A stretch of 11,556 bases of DNA from a candidate division WOR-3 bacterium (GTDB lineage: Bacteria; Hydrothermota; Hydrothermia; JBDRYB01), in assembly GCA_049969615.1 (NCBI GenBank), contig JBMFOM010000068.1, positions 1 through 11,556 on the forward strand, given 5' to 3'. Each line of letters begins with the position of its first letter. The first letter of the stretch is position 1. Position numbers and translations under genes: made by a program. This document shows positions 251-11,556 of the stretch, piece by piece. The notes beneath the pieces are model-generated. The model did not search any database. It saw only the letters and a list, made by a program, of their open reading frames with translations, and was not told the DNA's origin.

Positions 251-432
251 GCCTCCGTTTGGTTTTATGGCAAATGATGCCTCGAGGTCCCGCGTTCTCA
301 CAGAGTTCCTGAGTTTTGCCAGCTGTACAGGCCCGGAAGGCCGGGGTTTCTCCCTGGCATGAAAGGAGTCCGCTTCATATGTGTCCGGGGTAATAACGAA
401 TGCTACCGCTACAATTCCCACCGGGAAAACGT

Positions 433-462
433 TTCAGATTAATGCGGGTTCCAGGTTATAAT
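433..462 (+). promoter_or_regulatory. Promoter of the large outer-membrane protein gene, probably leaderless
   Basis: TATAAT 457-462 with a weak -35 TTCAGA 433-438 (18-bp spacer). An in-frame GTG begins at 469, where a transcription start is expected. Confidence 0.55.
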
Positions 463-468
463 TTGAGG

Positions 469-3339
469 GTGCTCCTTTTTTTGATCGCCCTGGATACTCT
501 ACGCCTGGTTTGGCCGGATACGGCTGTAATCCTTCGTCCCCACTTCCATGGTTCGGTGAGCCTGGAGCCTGATTTGCCTTATACCATATCCGGCGACACC
601 CTTATTGCCTTTCTTCATGATTATGATACTGTTATAGTCACATACCAGCCCCTTCCCTATGACTGGGCGAGGCCTCGCGTTCTTTTTCCGCTTCTGGAAG
701 AACCCTCTGAGAGTCTCAGAATCATTGAACGGGACACTGGGGTCAGTGGACTGGTATTCAACGGCGAAAAGACCATAGGGATAACATTTACTGGGGCTGG
801 TCCTTCCTTTGACGATGTGACGAGGCTCTCGGTCTCAGGCCAGGCCGGCGGGGTGAATCTGGATGGCAGGATTGAGGAGAGCGGTTTCTCTGGATCAGAG
901 TTCACGGGCGAGTTGGAAGAGATAGACAAAGCTTATCTTATGGCATCAAGGGGCGAATACGGGCTGAGCCTGGGAAACCTGCGGGAGGAAATGCTCATGG
1001 GCGGTTCCTATGGCACATTGAAATTTCTCGGCCTTTCGGCAAGGTCAGGCTTAGGTGAATTGAGGACAGGATACCAGAGGGGAAGTTTCGCGACGAAGGT
1101 GTTTTTCGGTTCTGAGGCATACCAAGGTCCATATCAGCTTACTGAGCCTGGCCAGCTAATAACCCCCAATTCTGAACGAATCTATCTGAACGGCGAGCTC
1201 ATGCGGCCCGGCAGGGACGCTGACTACATCCTTGACGCTTTGACCGGGACACTCATTTTCACTGCGAGGAGGCCCGTGAGGGCGGAGGACAGGATACTCT
1301 GCGAGTTCCAGCTCTCAGAATCCGGCAAGCAGTCCTATTTTGTGGCATCGGCACTAACGGAAGGGCCTTGGAGAGCCGAGGCAATGCAGTTCTGGGAGGA
1401 ATTGGCTCCAACAGGCGGTATGGATTCCCTTGGAGATACATCCTGGGCATGGGTTTCGGGCGCGAGGTTCGTGGGCAACGGAAACGGCAGCTACCAAAGA
1501 TCGGATTCAATTTTCGTATATGTTGGGCCCGGCATGGGCGACTGGGATGTCTCATTCAGCTACATGGGCCAGGGCGCAGGGGATTATACCTATGATAACC
1601 TGCTTGGTGGCTACAGGTTTGTTGGTGCGGGTGCGGGAAACTATTCCCCGGTGGTCAGGCTCTCACCACCAAGGAAAAAGATATACGGAAGCCTGGAATT
1701 CCGGCAGTGGAAGGAATCCTATGCCATTTCAGTTTTTGGGAGGGTGTCTGATTATGACAGGAACACATTCTCTCCTCTGGATGATGGGGATAATCGGGGT
1801 TTTGGCCTTGGTTCAGAGGTCTCGTTCTTCAGCTCATTTTTGTCAGCCGGCCTTGCAGGCGAGTGGCGCGATTCCTCATTTTCCTATCCGTTTACAGGCC
1901 TTTCTGGCAATGAGGACAGAATATGGGGCGTGTCCGACGCGGAGGGCATTGAAAAACAGGGCACATGGGCCTGGCTGGAGCTCAGACCCTTGGATTGGGC
2001 TTCTCTGAGGCCAGAGGCCGGCATTATCAAAATCGGAGGAATAACCTCGTTCCGCCGAGGAGGAAAACTGCTGGCCGGACCCCTGACCCTTTCCCACAGT
2101 CTTGTGACCATGAGTACCGGTTCTTGGATGGCCCTGTCGGAATCAAGGCTCGCCGGCGCCCGCGGCCTTTGGTCTGCCGGCATTGGCCTCGCGAGGGACA
2201 AGGGCGATACCATGAATGTCTGGCGAGCAGATGGTTCGCTTGGTTTCCGGACCCCGGGCATTACATGGGGCCTCGGGGGGCTTTGGCGCTTGGGTGACAG
2301 GAAGACCGAAAAAACCCTTTCCGTTAACCTCGGAGGCCCTGGCCGGTTCGTCGCCTGGGATGGCAGTTATATCCTTAGAAATTGGACCGGCGATACCCTG
2401 GGCACTGAGCACCATTTGTCGGCTGGCGCGACCGTGTCCGGACAGAGCTGGGGAGGATGGGGAAGGGCGGTTTTCTCTCAGTCCGCACGACAATTAACCG
2501 AGGAGAGGTTCATCTATGTCGGCCCCGGCCAGGGAGACTGGGCCTATGACCCTGTGACGGGTAGTTTTTACCCCTATCCTAGTGGGGATTATCTTCGCCA
2601 AATAATATATCTTGAGGCTTTCCAACCCTCCACCGAGAGAGGCATGGAGCTTGGTATCTGGGGGACAGGGGTGGGCGCAAGCGCGTCTGTTTCTGCCTCA
2701 GCCACCGAGAAACTTTCTGGAGGCCAGATATACTACTCCGATTACTCGGGCAATTTCTTTGCTTCAAGAGCCGGCAAGGGAATCCGGCCTTTCATTGAAG
2801 CATACGTTTCAAGGCTTTCTGATGCTCAGGGCTACCTGCCGCGGGTCATGGGTTCCGCTGACGGCAAACTGGGAATCCGCTTCCGCGTTCACGAGCCAGG
2901 AGTTGAGGTCGCCTATGAATCTGGCCTCATATGGGATGGCCTTGAGAGAGAGGTTATCAGGGGTTTTGCTTATTACAGGAGGACTGTCCTGGTCGGACTT
3001 GACCTGAAGGCCTCTTTTGGAAGGATGAGGGCTTCTGAACCCATTTATAATCCTGGAATCACGGCCTGGTTCTGGGAAATCGGTTTTTCGCCATCATGGA
3101 ACCAGGGACTCGGACCCTTCTTTGTCAATCTCATCCCCCAGCTCTTTTACCGGTGGGGGGAGCCGGGCGCCCGGATGAGTCAAGTCTTCGCCATATATCC
3201 GCCAGGCTTTTCCTACATGGTCTCCGCTTCACTAAAGATGGGTCGGGGCGGTTCCTTGACCCTGTCCGGATTTTTCAGGGGTGAGGAAGGAGGCCTCAGG
3301 GACAAGAGGCTCTCAGTTTCGGCGAGCCTGATCTTTTGA
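469..3339 (+). CDS. Large (~956 aa) hypothetical exported, probably outer-membrane beta-barrel protein
   Basis: Long ORF (track 400-3339). The start is placed at GTG 469 from promoter geometry, giving a hydrophobic N-terminus MLLFLIA; ATG 442 is the alternative. Gly/aromatic-rich alternating strands, C-terminal beta-signal-like LSVSASLIF, five [FY][VM]GxGxG[DNS][YW] repeats. Confidence 0.8.
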   Translation: MLLFLIALDTLRLVWPDTAVILRPHFHGSVSLEPDLPYTISGDTLIAFLHDYDTVIVTYQPLPYDWARPRVLFPLLEEPSESLRIIERDTGVSGLVFNGEKTIGITFTGAGPSFDDVTRLSVSGQAGGVNLDGRIEESGFSGSEFTGELEEIDKAYLMASRGEYGLSLGNLREEMLMGGSYGTLKFLGLSARSGLGELRTGYQRGSFATKVFFGSEAYQGPYQLTEPGQLITPNSERIYLNGELMRPGRDADYILDALTGTLIFTARRPVRAEDRILCEFQLSESGKQSYFVASALTEGPWRAEAMQFWEELAPTGGMDSLGDTSWAWVSGARFVGNGNGSYQRSDSIFVYVGPGMGDWDVSFSYMGQGAGDYTYDNLLGGYRFVGAGAGNYSPVVRLSPPRKKIYGSLEFRQWKESYAISVFGRVSDYDRNTFSPLDDGDNRGFGLGSEVSFFSSFLSAGLAGEWRDSSFSYPFTGLSGNEDRIWGVSDAEGIEKQGTWAWLELRPLDWASLRPEAGIIKIGGITSFRRGGKLLAGPLTLSHSLVTMSTGSWMALSESRLAGARGLWSAGIGLARDKGDTMNVWRADGSLGFRTPGITWGLGGLWRLGDRKTEKTLSVNLGGPGRFVAWDGSYILRNWTGDTLGTEHHLSAGATVSGQSWGGWGRAVFSQSARQLTEERFIYVGPGQGDWAYDPVTGSFYPYPSGDYLRQIIYLEAFQPSTERGMELGIWGTGVGASASVSASATEKLSGGQIYYSDYSGNFFASRAGKGIRPFIEAYVSRLSDAQGYLPRVMGSADGKLGIRFRVHEPGVEVAYESGLIWDGLEREVIRGFAYYRRTVLVGLDLKASFGRMRASEPIYNPGITAWFWEIGFSPSWNQGLGPFFVNLIPQLFYRWGEPGARMSQVFAIYPPGFSYMVSASLKMGRGGSLTLSGFFRGEEGGLRDKRLSVSASLIF

Positions 3340-3390: not shown

Positions 3391-3899
3391 TCCCCTGTTC
3401 GCTCAAAACTAAACCCTAACCTTAGGGCCTTCAATCGCTCAAAATAAAAAACTAACCCTAAGCGACCAGATGATAAGGTTTCAGGCTAAGGGATTTCTAT
3501 GAGGAGGGCTCGTGCAAGTTAAAAGCGCACAGGGGCACGAGGCGTGGTAGTGCCTTGAGGTTTCCTCAACTACCACGCCTCGCCGAAAGGGAATGCCCCC
3601 GTGCGCTGTTTTACTCGTCCTTCTGCCAAGCTGGTCGTTGATGAAGGCCTTATCGTTATCAGAGTCTATTCCCCTGAGGCTTTCAGGGAACAGATATAAG
3701 AGGGCAGGAGGGCCTTCAGGTTATCCGAGCACGCGAGAAAAGACGCGGCCCAACAATTGATGAGGACCCCCTCTTCCTCTGGGCCGTATATCCTTCTCCT
3801 GCCTCCGTGGCCTCCATATCTTCCTGTGGCTCATGGTTAGAATTCTATTTTGAGCGAACGAACCCATTTGGGTTAGATTTTTTGTGAGCGAACTCGCGT
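3391..3899. mobile_element. Element A: ~509-bp non-autonomous IS-derived element (MITE-like)
   Basis: Each end has two copies of a 23-25-bp motif (GTTCGCTCAAAA-N7-CTAACC): 3397-3421 and 3433-3457 on +, 3835-3859 and 3871-3893 on -. No intact transposase. Segment 3393-3469 is identical to 11480-11556. The ends are uncertain by a few bp. Confidence 0.75.
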
Positions 3900-4135: not shown

Positions 4136-4270
4136 ATGAAAAGGACATACCAGCCATCCAGGACCAAGAGGAAGAGAACACACGGATTCCTCGTGAGGAA
4201 AAGAACCCACGGTGGCAGGGCAGTAATAGCCCGGCGCCGGCGCGAGGGCAGAAAGCGCATCTGCGTCTGA
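4136..4270 (+). CDS. rpmH: 50S ribosomal protein L34
   Basis: 44 aa, [18 protein letters not shown]... L34 signature; first gene of the canonical cluster. Confidence 0.97.
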
Positions 4271-4297: not shown

Positions 4298-4639
4298 ATG
4301 GCGGATAGCGAAAAATCCCGCCATTTCAGGAGGGGCCTCAGACTCACCGAGGATGGTGAGATAAGACGGGTCGTCGGGGGAAAGAAAAAAGAGACCAAAT
4401 GGGCAATAGTATTCTTTCTGCCCCAACGAGAAACCAGGGCCGCTTTTTCGGCCAGGAAAACCTTGGGCAATGCAGTAGCGAGGAACAGGGCAAAGCGCCG
4501 TCTCAGGGAGTTCTTCAGACACAAAAGAACGGAGTTGCCGCTGGGGTGGTATCTGTTTGTTGCGAGGGAAGGGGCCGTGGATGGAGACTTCTCGGAAATG
4601 TGCCGCGGGTTGCTGAAAGAGCTCTCTCGGCTTTCCTAA
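4298..4639 (+). CDS. rnpA: Ribonuclease P protein component
   Basis: 113-aa basic protein with the RNR motif [15 protein letters not shown], located between rpmH and yidD. Confidence 0.93.
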
Positions 4640-5118
4640 TATTCCTAATAAAGCTTTATAAGCACGGGGTATCGCCCTTGTTTCCATCCGCGTGCAGGTT
4701 TCAACCATCGTGCTCCCAATACGCGATCACGGCGCTCGAGAAGCACGGCCCGATAATAGGCCTCGCTCTCTCGGCCTGGCGACTCCTCAGATGTGGCCCG
4801 TGGTCCGATGGCGGATATGACCCCGTGCCTGAACCCAAAAAGAAAACGGAAACTAACCATCCCGGTTCTAACAAACAAAACGATACCCCTGATAAAGCAG
4901 TGACAACTTACTGGTTTGAGCCAGGGGCACTCTGTTCAAGAGAACAGAGTTATAAGAGGGGCCCACTGAAAAATCCCGCAACAATAGCATTTCCTCAGGG
5001 TTCTTTTCTAGCTACGATGAGGCTCCCAGATAGAGACCAAGGACAAACCGGAATTTTTCAGGGGTTTCAAAACCTAAGGAGGAACGAAAAACCTGTATGG
5101 ACAAGCGAACCTGGATAG
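4600..5118 (+). CDS. yidD: Membrane protein insertion efficiency factor YidD with an extended C-terminus (172 aa)
   Basis: Motifs [10 protein letters not shown] and [20 protein letters not shown] start overlapping the end of rnpA. The core ends near 4830 and the frame stays open to TAG at 5116-5118. Confidence 0.9.
4882..5068. mobile_element. Element B: 187-bp MITE-like insertion in yidD
   Basis: TIRs GATACCCCTGATAAA (4882-4896) and the reverse complement GAAACCCCTGAAAAA (5054-5068) match at 13/15. Flanking direct repeat AAAAC at 4877-4881 and 5069-5073. The left 39 bp recur at 11366-11404. Confidence 0.75.
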
Positions 5119-6635
5119 CGCTTGGTGTCTTCACGGCACTCCTGGTGGCATATCAGGTATGGCTCTATTTCTCCGGAAGGTCAAAAGTCCAGGCGCCTAG
5201 ACCACAGGACACAACGCGGGTTCAGCCATCGGTCCTTCAGGCTCCGGACACGGCCGCCAAACCACCGCCCGAAACAACCAGAGTAGAACCAATCCCATCG
5301 CTTGCCGAAGAGGGCCTCATCACGGTTGAAACACCCAGGTTCACGGTTGAACTGACCAGAAGGGGTGGAAGGATATATTCCATGACCCTAAAGGGGTTCA
5401 AGGGGCCCGACAGGAAGGAGAACCAGGTAATAATAATAAAGCCTGGCTCGGAATTCCTCGGTACCTGGTTTGACTATGGGCTTTATTGCACATCCCAGGA
5501 AAACAGATTTGAACTGGAGGACGGGAAAAACCTTACGCTTTCCTTTGAAGGCCCGGAGGGTAAAAAATTCTATACCTTCTCTGACGGTTACACCTTTTCG
5601 GTCTGGTTGGAGGGGCCGGATACCTCCAGGTTATATCTGAGACCATCGCTGGCAGTAACAGAGGCTGACAGGACAAAGGACATAAACGAACACCACTTTA
5701 TTTATCAGCGGAACGGCAAGGTATCCTCCGAATCAATAAAAAAGGTCCTCGGCCCCGGCAAGGGGACGCCGGGGGATAACATAGGCTGGTTTGGCGCCAG
5801 GAGCAAATACTTCATGTTTATGTGCGTCCTTCAGGAAGGTTCTCTCAAAAGCCTTGTCGCGACCGCCGAATCCGACACCGGCATGAAGATAGAAGCGACC
5901 CTGGCAAAGACCCCTATTTCATTGCTCGTGTATGCTGGGCCGTTTGACTATGATGTCATGAGGAAGACAGGCTACGGCCTTGAGGAAAGCTACTCTTTTG
6001 GTTTCTGGCTCATAGCACCATTCGCCCGGTTGATATTCATCCTCTTCCGATGGCTCCACTGGCTCATCCCCAACTATGGCTGGGTGATCCTGATATTCTC
6101 GCTGGTCATGAAGATCGCGTTCTCACCCCTATCATACAAGACATACAAATCCATGAAGAAAATGCAGGACCTCAAACCAAAGATGGATGCCCTACAGGCA
6201 AAGTTCAAGGACAAGCCGGAGGAGCTGAATAGGGCGGTCATGGAGCTATACAAAGGAGAGAAGGTCAACCCCCTGTCTGGATGCATTCCGGTTCTCCTAC
6301 AGCTTCCTATTTTCTGGGCGCTTTATCAGGTGCTCAACATGACTATAGACCTTCGGGCCGCGCCCTGGATATTCTGGATCCACGACCTCTCTGCCAAGGA
6401 TCCATTCTATGTTCTGCCAATAGTCATGGGAGCGATCAGCCTGCTGAACGGATTGCTCCAGCCCTCAACGGACCGTCAAGCAAAGCTAACATCTGCCCTG
6501 ATGGCGGGGGTGTTCACATTCATATTCCTGAATTTCCCCGCGGGGATAGTTCTCTACTGGTTGAGCTATAACCTTTATAGCATAGCCGAACAGGCTATAT
6601 TCCGGAGAATACTCAAAAAGAAACCGGAGGCCTGA
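5097..6635 (+). CDS. yidC: Membrane protein insertase YidC
   Basis: 512 aa: N-terminal TM segment, periplasmic domain, and core motifs [63 protein letters not shown] at 5075-5082. Confidence 0.97.
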
Positions 6636-6637
6636 GT

Positions 6638-7255
6638 ATGGACTACGTAGACTCAGAAGGCGCGACACCGGATGAGGCACTGAGAAAGGTTCTGTCCAAG
6701 GTTGGACTTGAGCCCCGTGGAGTGAGGTACGAGGTCCTCGCCCACGGAGGCCCAACCAGCCGAGCCAAGGTAAGGGTATGGATAGAGCCAAAGGAAGTAC
6801 AGGAAGCAAAGGAGGTAATAAAGGAGTTTCTGAAAAAGCTGGGAGTCAGAGCAAAGATAGAGTTTCTCCTTCTGGAGAAAAAGCATTACCGAGTGAACCT
6901 GAGAACGCGCTCGTGGGACCGTGTTCTCATTGGTAAGGGCGGAGAGACCCTGAGGTCGCTTGAGCATCTGATAAACCTGATGATGCGCAGATGCAGGGTC
7001 AGGATACAGATTGACCTTGACATATCGGGATACAGAGAGAGGCAAAGGCAACTCTATTTGAACAAAGCCCTCGCAATAGCCGCGAGAGTCAAGGAAACTG
7101 GTCAGGAGATGACGCTGGACACCATCCCGCCAGACCAGAGACACTATATCAGGGAAGCCCTCAAGCTTGATCCGGAGATAAGAGTCTACACTGCTGGCCG
7201 AGGCAAGGAAACTTGCCTGGTAGTGGCACCCAGAAAGTCAAAATCCGGGGCATGA
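6638..7255 (+). CDS. jag: Jag/EloR/KhpB RNA-binding protein (Jag_N, KH, R3H-like)
   Basis: N-terminal EGATPDEAL, KH motif LIGKGGETLRSLEHL, linker DISGYRER, C-terminal R3H-like domain; canonical position after yidC. Confidence 0.92.
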   Translation: MDYVDSEGATPDEALRKVLSKVGLEPRGVRYEVLAHGGPTSRAKVRVWIEPKEVQEAKEVIKEFLKKLGVRAKIEFLLLEKKHYRVNLRTRSWDRVLIGKGGETLRSLEHLINLMMRRCRVRIQIDLDISGYRERQRQLYLNKALAIAARVKETGQEMTLDTIPPDQRHYIREALKLDPEIRVYTAGRGKETCLVVAPRKSKSGA

Positions 7256-7353
7256 ACAAAGCCCCAGCAAAGGCCTTGAGAGTATTCATCTCCCATGGAT
7301 ATGGCGTTTTGTTATAGTGGGCATATTTCTCCAGTTATTTCTTGGGGGCGGAA

Positions 7354-8646
7354 ATGGGCGGAACAGTAGCCGCGGTAGCAACGCCGCCTGGCAGGGGTGC
7401 GCTCGCGGTGATCCGTATAACCGGACCGGAAACAACCAGCGTCCTATCAAGGGTATTTCGCGGGAAGACGGCTCCGGAACAGTTCAAGCCCAAAAGGGTT
7501 TATTTCGGGGACCTGATTTCGGCCGGACAACTGATTGACAGGGTGGGAATCGCATTCTACAAGGGGCCGGAGAGCTACACGGGAGAAGATATGGCTGAGA
7601 TAACCTGCCACGGAGGCAGGCTTGTGTCAGCGCTCATCCTGGAGGCGCTTATCTCATCAGGGGCAAGCCCGGCAGAACCGGGGGAGTTCACTCTCCGCGC
7701 TTTCCTCAACGGCAAAATAGACCTCGCCGGAGCCGTTGGCATCAACGCCCTATCGCTTGTAAAAACCGAAAGAGCGCATCGGGCCGCCATGAATAGAATA
7801 GCCGGGGAGACCGGGACGGCCTTTGTCCGATTCAGGGACGAGCTGGCCGGGCTCCTGTTAGAGTGCGAAGCAAGGCTTGATTTTCCGGAGGATGTGCCGG
7901 ACATGGACGAAAACGACTTCCGAAAAAGATTACTGGAATTACGGGGAAAGATAATGGCATTCCTGGGTTCGGCCGGTAGGGCAGAATCTCTCTGGGAGGG
8001 CGTCTCCGTCGTGATAGCCGGACCGCCGAACGCTGGAAAGAGCACCCTTTTCAATGCCTTGCTCGGATACGAAAGGGCAATCGTTCATCACGAACCCGGA
8101 ACAACCAGGGATTACATATCCGAGTCAGTAGAACTTGGAGGATATTTAATAAGATTATACGACAGCGCGGGAACCGGAGAATTCGGAAGCTCGGTTGATA
8201 GGGAAGCGGTTAACAGGAGCCTTGAACTGGCCAGAAACGCTGATATAGTCATTTATCTACTGGAGCCGGGGTCAGGGGCTGGGTATCCTGATGGCGAAAA
8301 CATCATCAAGGTCTGCTCAAAATCAGACCTTTTGAGAGGCCAGCCGCCCGCTGGGATCATCCCGGTTTCGGGTATTACGGGCAAGGGGTTGGAGGTCCTG
8401 ATCGCAAAAATAACCACCATGGCAGAGGGAATTGCCGGCGGAGAAGATGTGCTCCTGGAAAGGGAAAGGCAACTCCTGGCAGAGGCATGTGTTCGCCTTG
8501 AGGAGGCAGGAAGAGAGGGCCTCGGCCTTGAGCTGGTGGCAGAAAACCTCTGGTCCGCCGGCAGGGCGATGGATAGGCTTTTGGGGCTTGATCTTCCCCA
8601 GGATGTAATCCGGGGAATATTCTCGCGGTTCTGTTTGGGCAAATAG
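7354..8646 (+). CDS. mnmE: tRNA modification GTPase MnmE (TrmE)
   Basis: Motifs AVATPPGRGALAVIRITG, SYTGEDMAEITCHGG, AEPGEFTLRAFLNGK, G1 GPPNAGKS, GTTRD and C-terminal FCLGK. ATG 7354 is preferred over TTG 7342. Confidence 0.96.
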   Translation: MGGTVAAVATPPGRGALAVIRITGPETTSVLSRVFRGKTAPEQFKPKRVYFGDLISAGQLIDRVGIAFYKGPESYTGEDMAEITCHGGRLVSALILEALISSGASPAEPGEFTLRAFLNGKIDLAGAVGINALSLVKTERAHRAAMNRIAGETGTAFVRFRDELAGLLLECEARLDFPEDVPDMDENDFRKRLLELRGKIMAFLGSAGRAESLWEGVSVVIAGPPNAGKSTLFNALLGYERAIVHHEPGTTRDYISESVELGGYLIRLYDSAGTGEFGSSVDREAVNRSLELARNADIVIYLLEPGSGAGYPDGENIIKVCSKSDLLRGQPPAGIIPVSGITGKGLEVLIAKITTMAEGIAGGEDVLLERERQLLAEACVRLEEAGREGLGLELVAENLWSAGRAMDRLLGLDLPQDVIRGIFSRFCLGK

Positions 8647-8678: not shown

Positions 8679-8702
8679 TTTGGAACCCGGCCGCCGTTAA
8701 AT
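8679..8702 (+). repeat. 24-bp direct repeat, copy 1 (upstream of the tRNA-Ser promoter)
   Basis: TTTGGAACCCGGCCGCCGTTAAAT, 21/24 identical to 8844-8867. Confidence 0.7.
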
Positions 8703-8704
8703 GC

Positions 8705-8733
8705 TTGATTCTGCGCAGGAAGTGGGCTATAAT
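8705..8733 (+). promoter_or_regulatory. tRNA-Ser promoter
   Basis: TTGATT 8705-8710, 17-bp spacer, TATAAT 8728-8733. Confidence 0.8.
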
Positions 8734-8745
8734 TTCCGGTTGACC

Positions 8746-8843: not shown

Positions 8844-8867
8844 TTTGGAACCCGGGCGCCGCAAAAT
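8844..8867 (+). repeat. 24-bp direct repeat, copy 2 (downstream of tRNA-Ser)
   Basis: TTTGGAACCCGGGCGCCGCAAAAT, 21/24 identical to 8679-8702. Confidence 0.7.
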
Positions 8868-8929: not shown

Positions 8930-10672
8930 TTATCTCCTGGTTCTCTTGCCTTTCTCCTCGTTTATGAAAACCCAAGCCACTATCTCACCTGGGTTAAAGG
9001 AATAATCAACTCCGAGGGTCTTCGGGTTGAGAAATCCCCTATCTTCCCGCGAGGAGCCGGAAAGTCCACGCTTTAGTCTCCGTGAGCGTGCCCGTGCGTC
9101 GGAGATTATTGCCTTGCACCGTGCCTGCCAGGCCTCGGCGTTTTTCGGCCTGGTATCAACCCAACCAGCATCTGCCCATCTCTCAACGTTCTGAGGGGTC
9201 GCTGGCATGGAACGTTCCCTGGGAAGGGGTATGACAACATGCGGACCAGCGAGGAGCTTGCCATCAGGCAATAGAACGGGGATACCGACAGAGAGGCAGG
9301 CCTGACGAACCTTGTCATCTTTCAGGATGAACTCGGACATAGCTTTTGATATATCAGAAGGCTCCGCGGCAACAACCTTCCTCATGTCACCGTAGGTCTC
9401 TTTTAGGATATGGGCCTCGTAAAGGAGCTTGGTGAGTCTCGGGGGGCCAAGTATCTCAAACGCAACAGAGGGAAACTCCTTGTTCTTCTGCTCCAGGGCG
9501 AGAAGCCTCTTTATCGCGGTATCCCTCAGGATGCCTCCCCTGTATGTCGGGCCCATAACAGAACCTTCCAAAGCGTCTATAACATCCCTACCGGTGTTCT
9601 GGCAGAGGGACTCGTATATGGCGTAATCGGCTATCTCCTCTGGAGTTATGTATTCCATCTGTCCTAGGGCTGATAGCGCGACGAACTCGCCCAAGGAGAA
9701 CAACCCGTTCTCGCCCGTGTCAATATAAACTGACTTAAGGGTCTTCCTGGTATTCTTGAATTTCACCGATTCAAGGGCCTGTGCTATGGATTCCTTTTCG
9801 GAAAGCGAAAGCGGCTCGTTGCTATCGTATATCTCTATGGGTTTGCCGCCCTTCGTTATCTTCCCTATGCCTATTCCCTGCCAGGCTATAGCGGCCGCTG
9901 GCTTCAGCTCTTTTATCGCGGGCGCGTCGCCTGCCCTTGACATTATGAAGAATAACATGCTCTGTGCGCCAGCCATTGCGGTCTTGGAGAGCAAAACACG
10001 AGAAGGTCTGTCCTCAGAATGGGTATAAGGTATGTCCCATCCCATTCCGCCTGTTCCGGTCGTACCTATTTTAACATAGAGCTCGGTACCAGCGTCCTTC
10101 ATGGCCCTTTTCAGTATTTCCATGTGCCTGACCAACTGTGGGGTGTATGCGGTGAGGAGGAACTTCTCCGCGTCAGTCTTGACATCCTTTCCGGATTTTA
10201 TCTCCTCGTAAAGGTCAAGCGCCGCGTCATAAACATTCTGATAAGCCAAGGCGGTCGCTGTATTGATAGAATCATAAACGATGTGGGGCTTAGCCTGCAT
10301 AAAAAGCCAGTACAGATAGGAGGCATGAATTATGTCATCGTTTATCTGCAGGTAGGTGTCTTCAATGAGGGTGCGCCTAGCCTTCTCGTCAGCGAGGAGC
10401 TCCGCCCTTGGGCTATCTTTGAACTCGGTCCTGACGAACACGTTTCCCCAGAATCCCGCGAGCCTTCCCTTTCGCCAACAAGGAACCTCGCCAATCTTTT
10501 CCTTTGTGGGTGTGCCCCTGATGAGGAGGTCAAAGGTTTCCGTGATCTCGTGTTCATAGAGGCCCAGTATGGTAACGCTGGAGGCCTTAAGCGCTAGGGC
10601 CTTTTCAGCTATTATCCTGCCAACTAGGCCCGTTCCACCCAAAATGAGGACATTTTTTCCCTTGAAGTTCAT
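8930..10672 (-). CDS. Uncharacterised 580-aa NAD(P)-binding Rossmann / atypical extended SDR-like protein
   Basis: N-terminal KNVLILGGTGLVG dinucleotide-binding motif, DSINTA strand, GTTGTGGMG loop; SD GGAG 8 nt upstream of the ATG. Function not recognised. Confidence 0.8.
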   Translation of the reverse strand: MNFKGKNVLILGGTGLVGRIIAEKALALKASSVTILGLYEHEITETFDLLIRGTPTKEKIGEVPCWRKGRLAGFWGNVFVRTEFKDSPRAELLADEKARRTLIEDTYLQINDDIIHASYLYWLFMQAKPHIVYDSINTATALAYQNVYDAALDLYEEIKSGKDVKTDAEKFLLTAYTPQLVRHMEILKRAMKDAGTELYVKIGTTGTGGMGWDIPYTHSEDRPSRVLLSKTAMAGAQSMLFFIMSRAGDAPAIKELKPAAAIAWQGIGIGKITKGGKPIEIYDSNEPLSLSEKESIAQALESVKFKNTRKTLKSVYIDTGENGLFSLGEFVALSALGQMEYITPEEIADYAIYESLCQNTGRDVIDALEGSVMGPTYRGGILRDTAIKRLLALEQKNKEFPSVAFEILGPPRLTKLLYEAHILKETYGDMRKVVAAEPSDISKAMSEFILKDDKVRQACLSVGIPVLLPDGKLLAGPHVVIPLPRERSMPATPQNVERWADAGWVDTRPKNAEAWQARCKAIISDARARSRRLKRGLSGSSREDRGFLNPKTLGVDYSFNPGEIVAWVFINEEKGKRTRR

Positions 10673-10725: not shown

Positions 10726-11319
10726 TCATTTTTTCTCCGCATCGTGAAAAGGCCAGATCATGTTGTCCACCGCGGCCATCATTGAGCCGGCAAGGTCTTC
10801 ATAAACCTCCCCCCTTGACTTAGCCTCGTAGAGCATCTCCCCCGTTTCTGTGTTAACTATGCGGGTCTTTAGGACAACAACATAGTAGGCCCTCATCTCC
10901 GGGTCATTGGCCTCGTGCCCCTCCAGTATGCTCTGTATCTCCACTACACACACAGCCTCTGCGCCCATTCCAAGCGCTGTTGCTCTGGCAGTGCCCATCT
11001 CAGGCACAATCTCCCATCCTGGGGATTCCCTCTTGGTAACCTGCATGATGAGACTAGTGTCCTTGGTAACCACCTCAAAGGTCTCCAGGGAATCCAGTGA
11101 GCGCATCAGATAATCCCAAAGTATATCATAGGGCCTCCTAGGAAGATCGGAATATTGCATGTAACCATAGGGTGGCAGAACAACGATTTTCCAGGTCTTT
11201 TTGCCTGCCATCTCCCTGTAGAGGGTGTATTTCAGATAGTAATCGTCAATACCCCTGTGGCAGGAAACAGGGGCCGCGGAAGCCACCAGGAGCGAGACAA
11301 CTAATAATACCCTGCTCAT
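10726..11319 (-). CDS. Putative exported protein or lipoprotein with a CsgG/LpoB/TolB-N-like fold
   Basis: Signal peptide MSRVLLVVSLLVASAAPVS-C (imperfect lipobox). The segments KIVVLPP, LGMGAEAVCVVEI and LKTRIVNTETGEMLY match that superfamily pattern. Confidence 0.7.
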   Translation of the reverse strand: MSRVLLVVSLLVASAAPVSCHRGIDDYYLKYTLYREMAGKKTWKIVVLPPYGYMQYSDLPRRPYDILWDYLMRSLDSLETFEVVTKDTSLIMQVTKRESPGWEIVPEMGTARATALGMGAEAVCVVEIQSILEGHEANDPEMRAYYVVVLKTRIVNTETGEMLYEAKSRGEVYEDLAGSMMAAVDNMIWPFHDAEKK

Positions 11320-11328
11320 GTGCTACAA

Positions 11329-11357
11329 ACTATAACCCACTTCCTGCACGGGATCAA
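11329..11357 (-). promoter_or_regulatory. Promoter of the lipoprotein-like gene (near-leaderless)
   Basis: On the minus strand: TTGATC, 17-bp spacer, TATAGT. Only 9 nt separate the -10 from the ATG and there is no SD. Confidence 0.7.
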
Positions 11358-11365
11358 GTATTTTT

Positions 11366-11404
11366 GAGACCCCTGATAAAGTAGCGATAACTTACTGGTT
11401 TGGG
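11366..11404 (+). repeat. Second left end of element B
   Basis: 34/39 identical to 4882-4920; similarity starts exactly at the TIR GAGACCCCTGATAAA. Confidence 0.8.
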
Positions 11405-11479: not shown

Positions 11480-11556
11480 CCCTGTTCGCTCAAAACTAAA
11501 CCCTAACCTTAGGGCCTTCAATCGCTCAAAATAAAAAACTAACCCTAAGCGACCAG
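11480..11556 (+). mobile_element. Second copy of the element A left end, truncated by the window edge
   Basis: 77/77 identical to 3393-3469. Confidence 0.85.

Follow-up and report, generated by a model that had tools for sequence, protein, structure and literature searches.

Introduction

In the available sections of PMC10969869, the fusion of a MITE open reading frame in frame with that of a host gene is called 'not unusual', and the Rickettsia palindromic elements (RPEs) are given as the extreme case, lying in frame within dozens of unrelated functional genes and carrying a conserved peptide. The lengthening of gene 3' ends by repeats is reviewed in section 15 of PMC3184786, as far as the excerpt of that review extends. 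According to the available part of PMC5896051, the QMITE insertions of Coxiella in functional genes are all located at 3' ends, and one of them gives a 33-aa extension of EnhC. A different arrangement is described in the excerpt of PMC3184786 for MIRU units, which are found in polycistronic operons and whose ORF ends overlap the adjacent genes.

The locus described here belongs to a candidate division WOR-3 bacterium. The window, that is, the whole stretch of DNA that was analysed, has a length of 11,556 nt and carries within its yidD gene a short repeat designated element B, which an earlier note on the same DNA had read as an in-frame insertion. Element B was compared with the yidD tails of relatives, with other copies of the repeat and with the systems named above.

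Genes of the window and the yidD-yidC junction

The genes rpmH, rnpA, yidD, yidC, jag and mnmE were found in the canonical operon order with every gene on the + strand (Table 1), and two tRNA-Val genes and one tRNA-Ser gene were located upstream and downstream of the operon, respectively. The 3' end of rnpA overlaps the start of yidD by 40 nt, and the first 22 nt of yidC are shared with the end of yidD, the stop codon of which lies inside yidC. The product of yidD has 172 aa from a GTG start at 4600, with an identical protein (P0135) in the protein collection, and its match to PF01809 over residues 12-76 reached 97.6 bits, above the curated cut-off of 27. Between the end of the Shine-Dalgarno-like site of yidC and the ATG there are 14 nt, a long spacing. 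In E. coli K-12 the gap from the end of yidD to yidC is 2 nt, and the tight yidD-yidC junction is a general feature and not peculiar to the window.

The yidD frame is also open for 67 codons upstream of the GTG (4399-4599, overlapping rnpA), and a similar N-terminal 'extension' ahead of the YidD start was seen in the relative P0003 (159 aa). This longer N-terminus is most likely an over-extension by the gene caller through conserved rnpA DNA and not genuine. Three other ORFs, at 400-3339 (+), 8930-10672 (-) and 10726-11319 (-), encode 979, 580 and 197 aa, respectively, and were without a Pfam or NCBIfam family.

Table 1. Positions of element B, its parts and the neighbouring genes in the window
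Feature	Position	Strand	Remarks
rpmH	4136-4270	+	L34-like translation
rnpA (RNase P protein)	4298-4639	+	Pfam Ribonuclease_P, E = 6.7e-18
yidD	4600-5118	+	Pfam YidD PF01809, E = 3.6e-28
Left 5-nt direct repeat AAAAC (putative target-site duplication)	4877-4881	+	
Element B, 187-nt non-autonomous TIR element	4882-5068	+	No transposase; sense frame 0 open
Left terminal inverted repeat GATACCCCTGATAAA	4882-4896	+	
Internal perfect 9-bp hairpin ACTCTGTTC aaga GAACAGAGT	4929-4950	+	Fold; blastn self-match
Long hairpin module	4958-5068	+	TIR-like stretch ~4959-4975 pairs with right end; folds
Right terminal inverted repeat, reverse complement GAAACCCCTGAAAAA	5054-5068	-	
Right 5-nt direct repeat AAAAC	5069-5073	+	
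AAGGAGG, Shine-Dalgarno-like site of yidC	5076-5082	+	Read from sequence
yidC	5097-6635	+	Pfam 60KD_IMP, E = 5.9e-55; also YidC_periplas
jag	6638-7255	+	Pfam
mnmE	7342-8646	+	Pfam
Partial second copy of element B	11366-11402	+	Left 37 nt, 89% identity

Structure and boundaries of element B

Element B was confirmed as a 187-nt unit with terminal inverted repeats (TIRs) agreeing at 13 of 15 positions and with AAAAC on either flank, as the earlier note had described it, and both ends matched a degenerate 15-mer with 0 mismatches. The left boundary, for which the partial copy at 11366 had been given as independent confirmation, was likewise borne out, as the identity of the two copies begins exactly at the left end of the element and their upstream flanks differ. 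Two details of the earlier description were corrected. The third TIR-like copy that had been proposed inside the element, at 4959-4973, does form base pairs with the right end in the predicted fold, but its match to the TIR is just 11/15, and the stretch was absent among the 15-mer matches at up to 3 mismatches; the gap between the right AAAAC and the AAGGAGG of yidC is 2 nt and not 1 nt.

The 192 nt from 4882 to 5073 comprise 64 stop-free codons in the yidD frame, and by translation their removal shortens YidD from 172 aa to 108 aa, both as previously claimed. Of the six frames of element B, frame 0 alone is free of stops and reads as a 62-codon peptide; each of the other five carries 1 to 5 stops. 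The 64-aa peptide gave no usable match in the ESM Atlas and was not recognised as protein-like. A transposase was found neither by Pfam nor by NCBIfam in the window, and no cognate insertion sequence with ends of this kind came to light.

The copy in yidD is the sole complete copy of element B seen as DNA. The copy at 11366 is limited to the left end of the element, adjoins, upstream, the promoter-like sequence of the minus-strand ORF 10726-11319, and lies in a region the fold of which was not significant (z = -0.35). That this copy is a short deletion derivative whose right end has degenerated is not claimed; about 10/16 matches were counted by eye for such an end.

The TIRs of element B alone are not above chance: TIRs with at least 13/15 matches and 100-400 nt apart occurred 4 times in the window versus a mean of 2.5 in 60 shuffles. 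TIRs together with an exact 5-nt flanking repeat occurred once in the window, at element B, versus 1 of 60 shuffles (mean 0.017). The comparative evidence for an insertion, given below, is stronger than these statistics.

Relatives of YidD and the empty site

The 92 residues of YidD upstream of the insert were used as the query, and 1887 YidD matches were obtained at E <= 0.001. The closest relatives were P0002 (77% identity, candidate division WOR-3 by source name), P0003 (68%) and P0004 (66%), and these three were aligned together with 6 chosen others. The shorter form of yidD that had been expected in relatives was found at the protein level, the 64 aa being absent in 3/3 of the closest relatives and in 6/6 of the others aligned. 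The tail of P0002, which reads ...NQQ and then RGTNNEEPT, matches the window tail across the proposed empty site between these two parts; in this relative, the residues that precede the insert in the window are thus followed at once by those that the yidC ribosome site encodes. The tails of P0004 and the window end alike, in ...AIWTRKPG and ...PVWTSEPG, respectively, which suggests that the yidD stop lies inside the first yidC codons in both; judged by its protein tail, the same also seems true of P0002.

The insert corresponds to residues 95-158 of YidD, beyond the end of the Pfam domain at residue 76. As far as these alignments indicate, element B is an insertion into the poorly conserved tail of yidD and not ancestral sequence, and the putative empty site is drawn from protein tails, those of relatives with no more than 66-77% identity.

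Other copies of the repeat

The 64-aa translation was searched against 1.84 billion representative proteins, and profile searches were run against a collection of 5.8 billion. The former gave 13 matches, 6 of which were judged to be true copies at 54-69% identity, and the latter added 3 further copies, making nine in total, all known only as translations. These nine copies bear the source names candidate division WOR-3 (5) and Ca. Hydrothermia (4), come from two other genome bins, and lie each on a separate contig with unrelated flanks. P0127 and P0129-P0134 were discarded as spurious, being repeat proteins, six with other Pfam families (cadherin-like, TPR, ABC_ATPase) and P0131 without a family. 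A scan of genome contigs with a 23-nt pattern derived from both copies in the window gave the sole locus L001 in a gammaproteobacterial bin, which was discarded as a chance match with no similarity beyond the pattern. Element B had no blastn match in the plasmid and phage collections, and the C-terminal flank of P0122 reached only scores of <=0.83 in the ESM Atlas, which is in the noise range.

Among the nine foreign copies, the similarity starts at the codon of 4882 in 5, and its last codon is the one ending at 5067 in 6. As these boundaries coincide with those in the window, the TIRs mark the two ends of the repeat unit. Frame 0 is open across the part seen in five copies, the indels of which are multiples of three: P0122 is aligned to the window without gaps over 72 aa, P0123 and P0125 are gapless over the parts covered, P0124 has one codon fewer, and P0126 has one codon extra and lacks 14 codons (4897-4938). 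The frame is broken or changed in the other four: P0136 stops early, at 4965; beyond 4959, P0137 is read in frame 2; the frame of P0128 changes at the right end; and P0138 matches in frame 0 only from 5014. As the search detected copies by way of predicted proteins, the share of open frames (5/9) is biased upward. In its frame-2 part, P0137 shares 65.6% identity with frame 2 of the window, versus 61-68% for frame 0 in the other copies; being no lower, this value fits neutral divergence of DNA and not a constraint on the peptide.

No Pfam family was found in the host proteins of any of the nine copies, and no NCBIfam family in the 6 of them that were run, and a recognisable gene is the host of 1 of the 10 visible copies, namely yidD. 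The protein flanks of about four foreign copies were compared with a 5-nt duplication under assumed boundaries: those of P0122 (...YR, element, (C)+H R...), as judged from codons, are compatible with it, and those of P0124, P0126 and P0137 are not. At least some of the foreign copies are intergenic read-throughs: in P0123 and P0126 the protein sequence to the right of the element corresponds to a promoter-like stretch that is also present at two places in the window.

Other repeats in the window

The promoter-like module TTGATnCnGnGCAGGAAGTGGGnTATAAT, with a conserved spacer, is located at 8699-8735 (+) and 11327-11363 (-), with 84% identity over 37 nt, and adjoins, upstream, tRNA-Ser and the minus-strand ORF 10726-11319, respectively. 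Its translation recurs just right of the element-B copies P0123 and P0126, in two other bins; element B may have a preference for sites beside promoters of this kind, or else the module is perhaps a DNA repeat in its own right. The gene for tRNA-Ser is flanked by direct repeats TTTGGAACCCGG(C/G)CGCCG..AAAT at 8679-8702 and 8844-8867 (88% identical), and their TTGGAACCC part, as judged from codons, also follows the element in P0123 and P0126.

A second repeat, element A, is a 77-nt stretch found with 100% identity at 3393-3469 and 11480-11556, the latter copy reaching the end of the contig. At its first site the stretch forms the left arm of a unit about 490 nt long, the imperfect inverted arms of which span 68 nt each, at 3411-3478 and 3814-3881 (71%), and in which GTTCGCTCAAAA-like motifs are repeated. 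Element A is probably a further non-autonomous element with recent activity, and it would account for the assembly stop at 11556.

Coding character and in-frame read-through

GC3 of element B in the yidD frame was 0.36, versus 0.59-0.63 in six genes of the window. In the AlphaFold2 model, the insert was without secondary structure and its pLDDT stayed below 50, against 70-89 in the YidD core, and the underlying alignment held 10 rows, none covering the insert; the model thus hints, weakly, at an unstructured inserted peptide. Element B behaves as non-coding repeat DNA and has no coding signature.

From the gapless alignment of P0122, 187 nt seems to be the canonical unit. With the 5-nt duplication it gives 192 nt, a multiple of three, and together with one open sense frame this accounts for the read-through here, in this phase. 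The open sense frame and the length divisible by three look, on the translations compared, like properties of the family, and in a family with these properties roughly 1 insertion in 6 would be read through (two orientations by three phases). The earlier estimate of about 1.5% for an in-frame and stop-free insertion is fair for a random 192-mer, but it is wrong for such a family, and it therefore provides no evidence for selection at the yidD locus. Among 20,000 shuffles of composition-matched 192-mers, a given frame was stop-free in 2.5%, and at least one of the six frames was open in 18%.

In the yidD frame, 64 residues are added and the old stop in the first yidC codons is still used. The proposal that selection had kept the overlap and the translational coupling is not supported in the form in which it was made, given the family geometry, the low GC3 and the frame-broken copies (4/9); a special selection for yidD-yidC coupling is possible. 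A continued supply of ribosomes to the yidC start may result from the read-through, although the data do not require it. The extra peptide of YidD is most likely a tolerated passenger and not an adapted domain.

Discussion

The best explanation of the locus, and a probable one, is a MITE mobilised in trans that was inserted in the tail of yidD and is read in frame by virtue of its family geometry, with the added peptide as a passenger. In the proposed course of events, a transposase acting in trans would have recognised ends of the form GA(N)ACCCCTGA(W)AAA, and the 187-nt element would have been placed into an A-rich site with duplication of AAAAC. The presumed target was the C-terminal tail of yidD, 16 codons past the YidD domain and 3 nt upstream of the ribosome site of yidC. 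The features of a MITE that were observed are the small size without a transposase gene, the TIRs, and several dispersed copies with unrelated flanks, and element B is probably a member of a new MITE family in an uncultured phylum. Its in-frame outcome is probably an accident of the family geometry that was tolerated.

Three other explanations were weighed against this one. The frame could have been kept for life in genes, as in an RPE-like 'coding' element, or by selection at the locus, where an early end of yidD would uncouple the essential yidC. Such an origin would agree with frame 0 being the only open frame of six, with 187 + 5 being divisible by 3, with the five foreign copies that are open where seen and have indels in multiples of three, and with a yidD stop that lies inside yidC in the window and seemingly also in P0004 and P0002; the long spacing of 14 nt between the Shine-Dalgarno-like site and the ATG could, moreover, make coupling matter. 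It is nevertheless unlikely, because four of nine copies are broken or frame-shifted although a protein-based search favours open ones, GC3 gives no sign of adaptation to host coding, no recognisable gene hosts any of the nine other copies (by Pfam, and by NCBIfam for 6 of them), at least one open frame among six arises in 18% of shuffles, and yidC has a Shine-Dalgarno site of its own outside the element hairpin.

A function at the RNA level, as an mRNA stabiliser or a modulator of yidC translation in the rpmH-rnpA-yidD-yidC transcript, possibly with spread by transposition, is very unlikely. The RNA of element B is predicted to fold into three hairpins at -66.1 kcal/mol (z = -5.06, with 0/200 shuffles as stable), the long hairpin ends 8 nt before the Shine-Dalgarno-like site, and small RNAs derived from MITEs and effects on mRNA are reported in the available parts of the reviews PMC10969869 and PMC5896051. 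As DNA, the element also folds strongly (z = -4.17, with 0/200 shuffles as good). A predicted fold of this strength is expected of a MITE and would also fit an RNA-level function, but inverted repeats yield a strong fold as a by-product, no Rfam match was obtained in 4877-5073 at E up to 1, and whole hairpin parts are deleted in the foreign copies P0126 and P0128. A role of element B as terminator or promoter was rejected, as no such site was found inside it on the + strand. That there was no insertion, the 64 residues being a lineage-specific extension of YidD or an artefact of assembly at a repeat, is improbable in the extreme. YidD tails do vary among relatives, with listed lengths of 66-159 aa, and the window is a whole contig ending inside another repeat, which implies that repeats disturbed the assembly; against this, the segment recurs in unrelated contexts, has TIRs and a flanking repeat, and is bordered by canonical yidD and yidC on its two flanks, and the tail left after its excision matches P0002.

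On the trans-mobilised MITE reading, the oddly long YidD annotation (172 aa versus the usual 70-100 aa) is accounted for by element B, and a number of 'hypothetical proteins' from related bins seem to be translations of repeats. The MITE family had not been described before and belongs to a phylum known almost only from metagenome bins, and among the literature matches listed no paper was found that treats WOR-3/Hydrothermia and MITE jointly. Element B in yidD offers a natural test case for the tolerance of an operon junction upstream of an essential gene; the general knowledge of MITEs is unchanged by it. It is quite doubtful that the 192-nt unit and its stop-free frame have been kept by selection, allowing gene tails and operon junctions to be colonised without uncoupling by an independent RPE-like strategy in WOR-3/Hydrothermia. 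If true, such a strategy would have been caught inside the essential rpmH-rnpA-yidD-yidC operon.

Comparison with known systems

Element B is like QMITE1 and QMITE2 of Coxiella, ERIC, pneumococcal BOX and the MITEs of Anabaena in its small size, its TIRs, the short putative duplication on its flanks and its strong hairpin. Like the 3'-fused MITEs, as these are presented in the excerpts cited in the Introduction, it sits at the 3' end of a functional gene and alters the C-terminus of the product. Unlike the known 3'-fused MITEs, it has no sequence similarity in the plasmid and phage collections or Rfam, its host lineage is WOR-3 / Hydrothermia, and it is traversed whole, so that the ORF resumes behind it and ends at the original stop overlapping the next gene.

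The analogy with the Rickettsia palindromic elements that had been drawn in the earlier note is fair in the sense of 'works like': in both cases a palindromic repeat of about 150-190 nt lies in frame within a conserved gene and adds its peptide outside the conserved core. The analogy fails in the many in-frame insertions in functional genes and the maintained peptide that distinguish RPEs. Only yidD qualifies as such a gene among the 10 visible copies of element B, the frame is broken in 4/9 of the others, and neither a peptide nor an open frame is maintained among the copies.

The MIRUs, which often occur in tandem, are units of 40-100 bp between genes, unlike element B, a single 187-nt TIR element in a gene tail. 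Both are found in polycistronic operons with an ORF end that overlaps the adjacent gene, and the outcome is alike in that translation reaches the start of the next gene.
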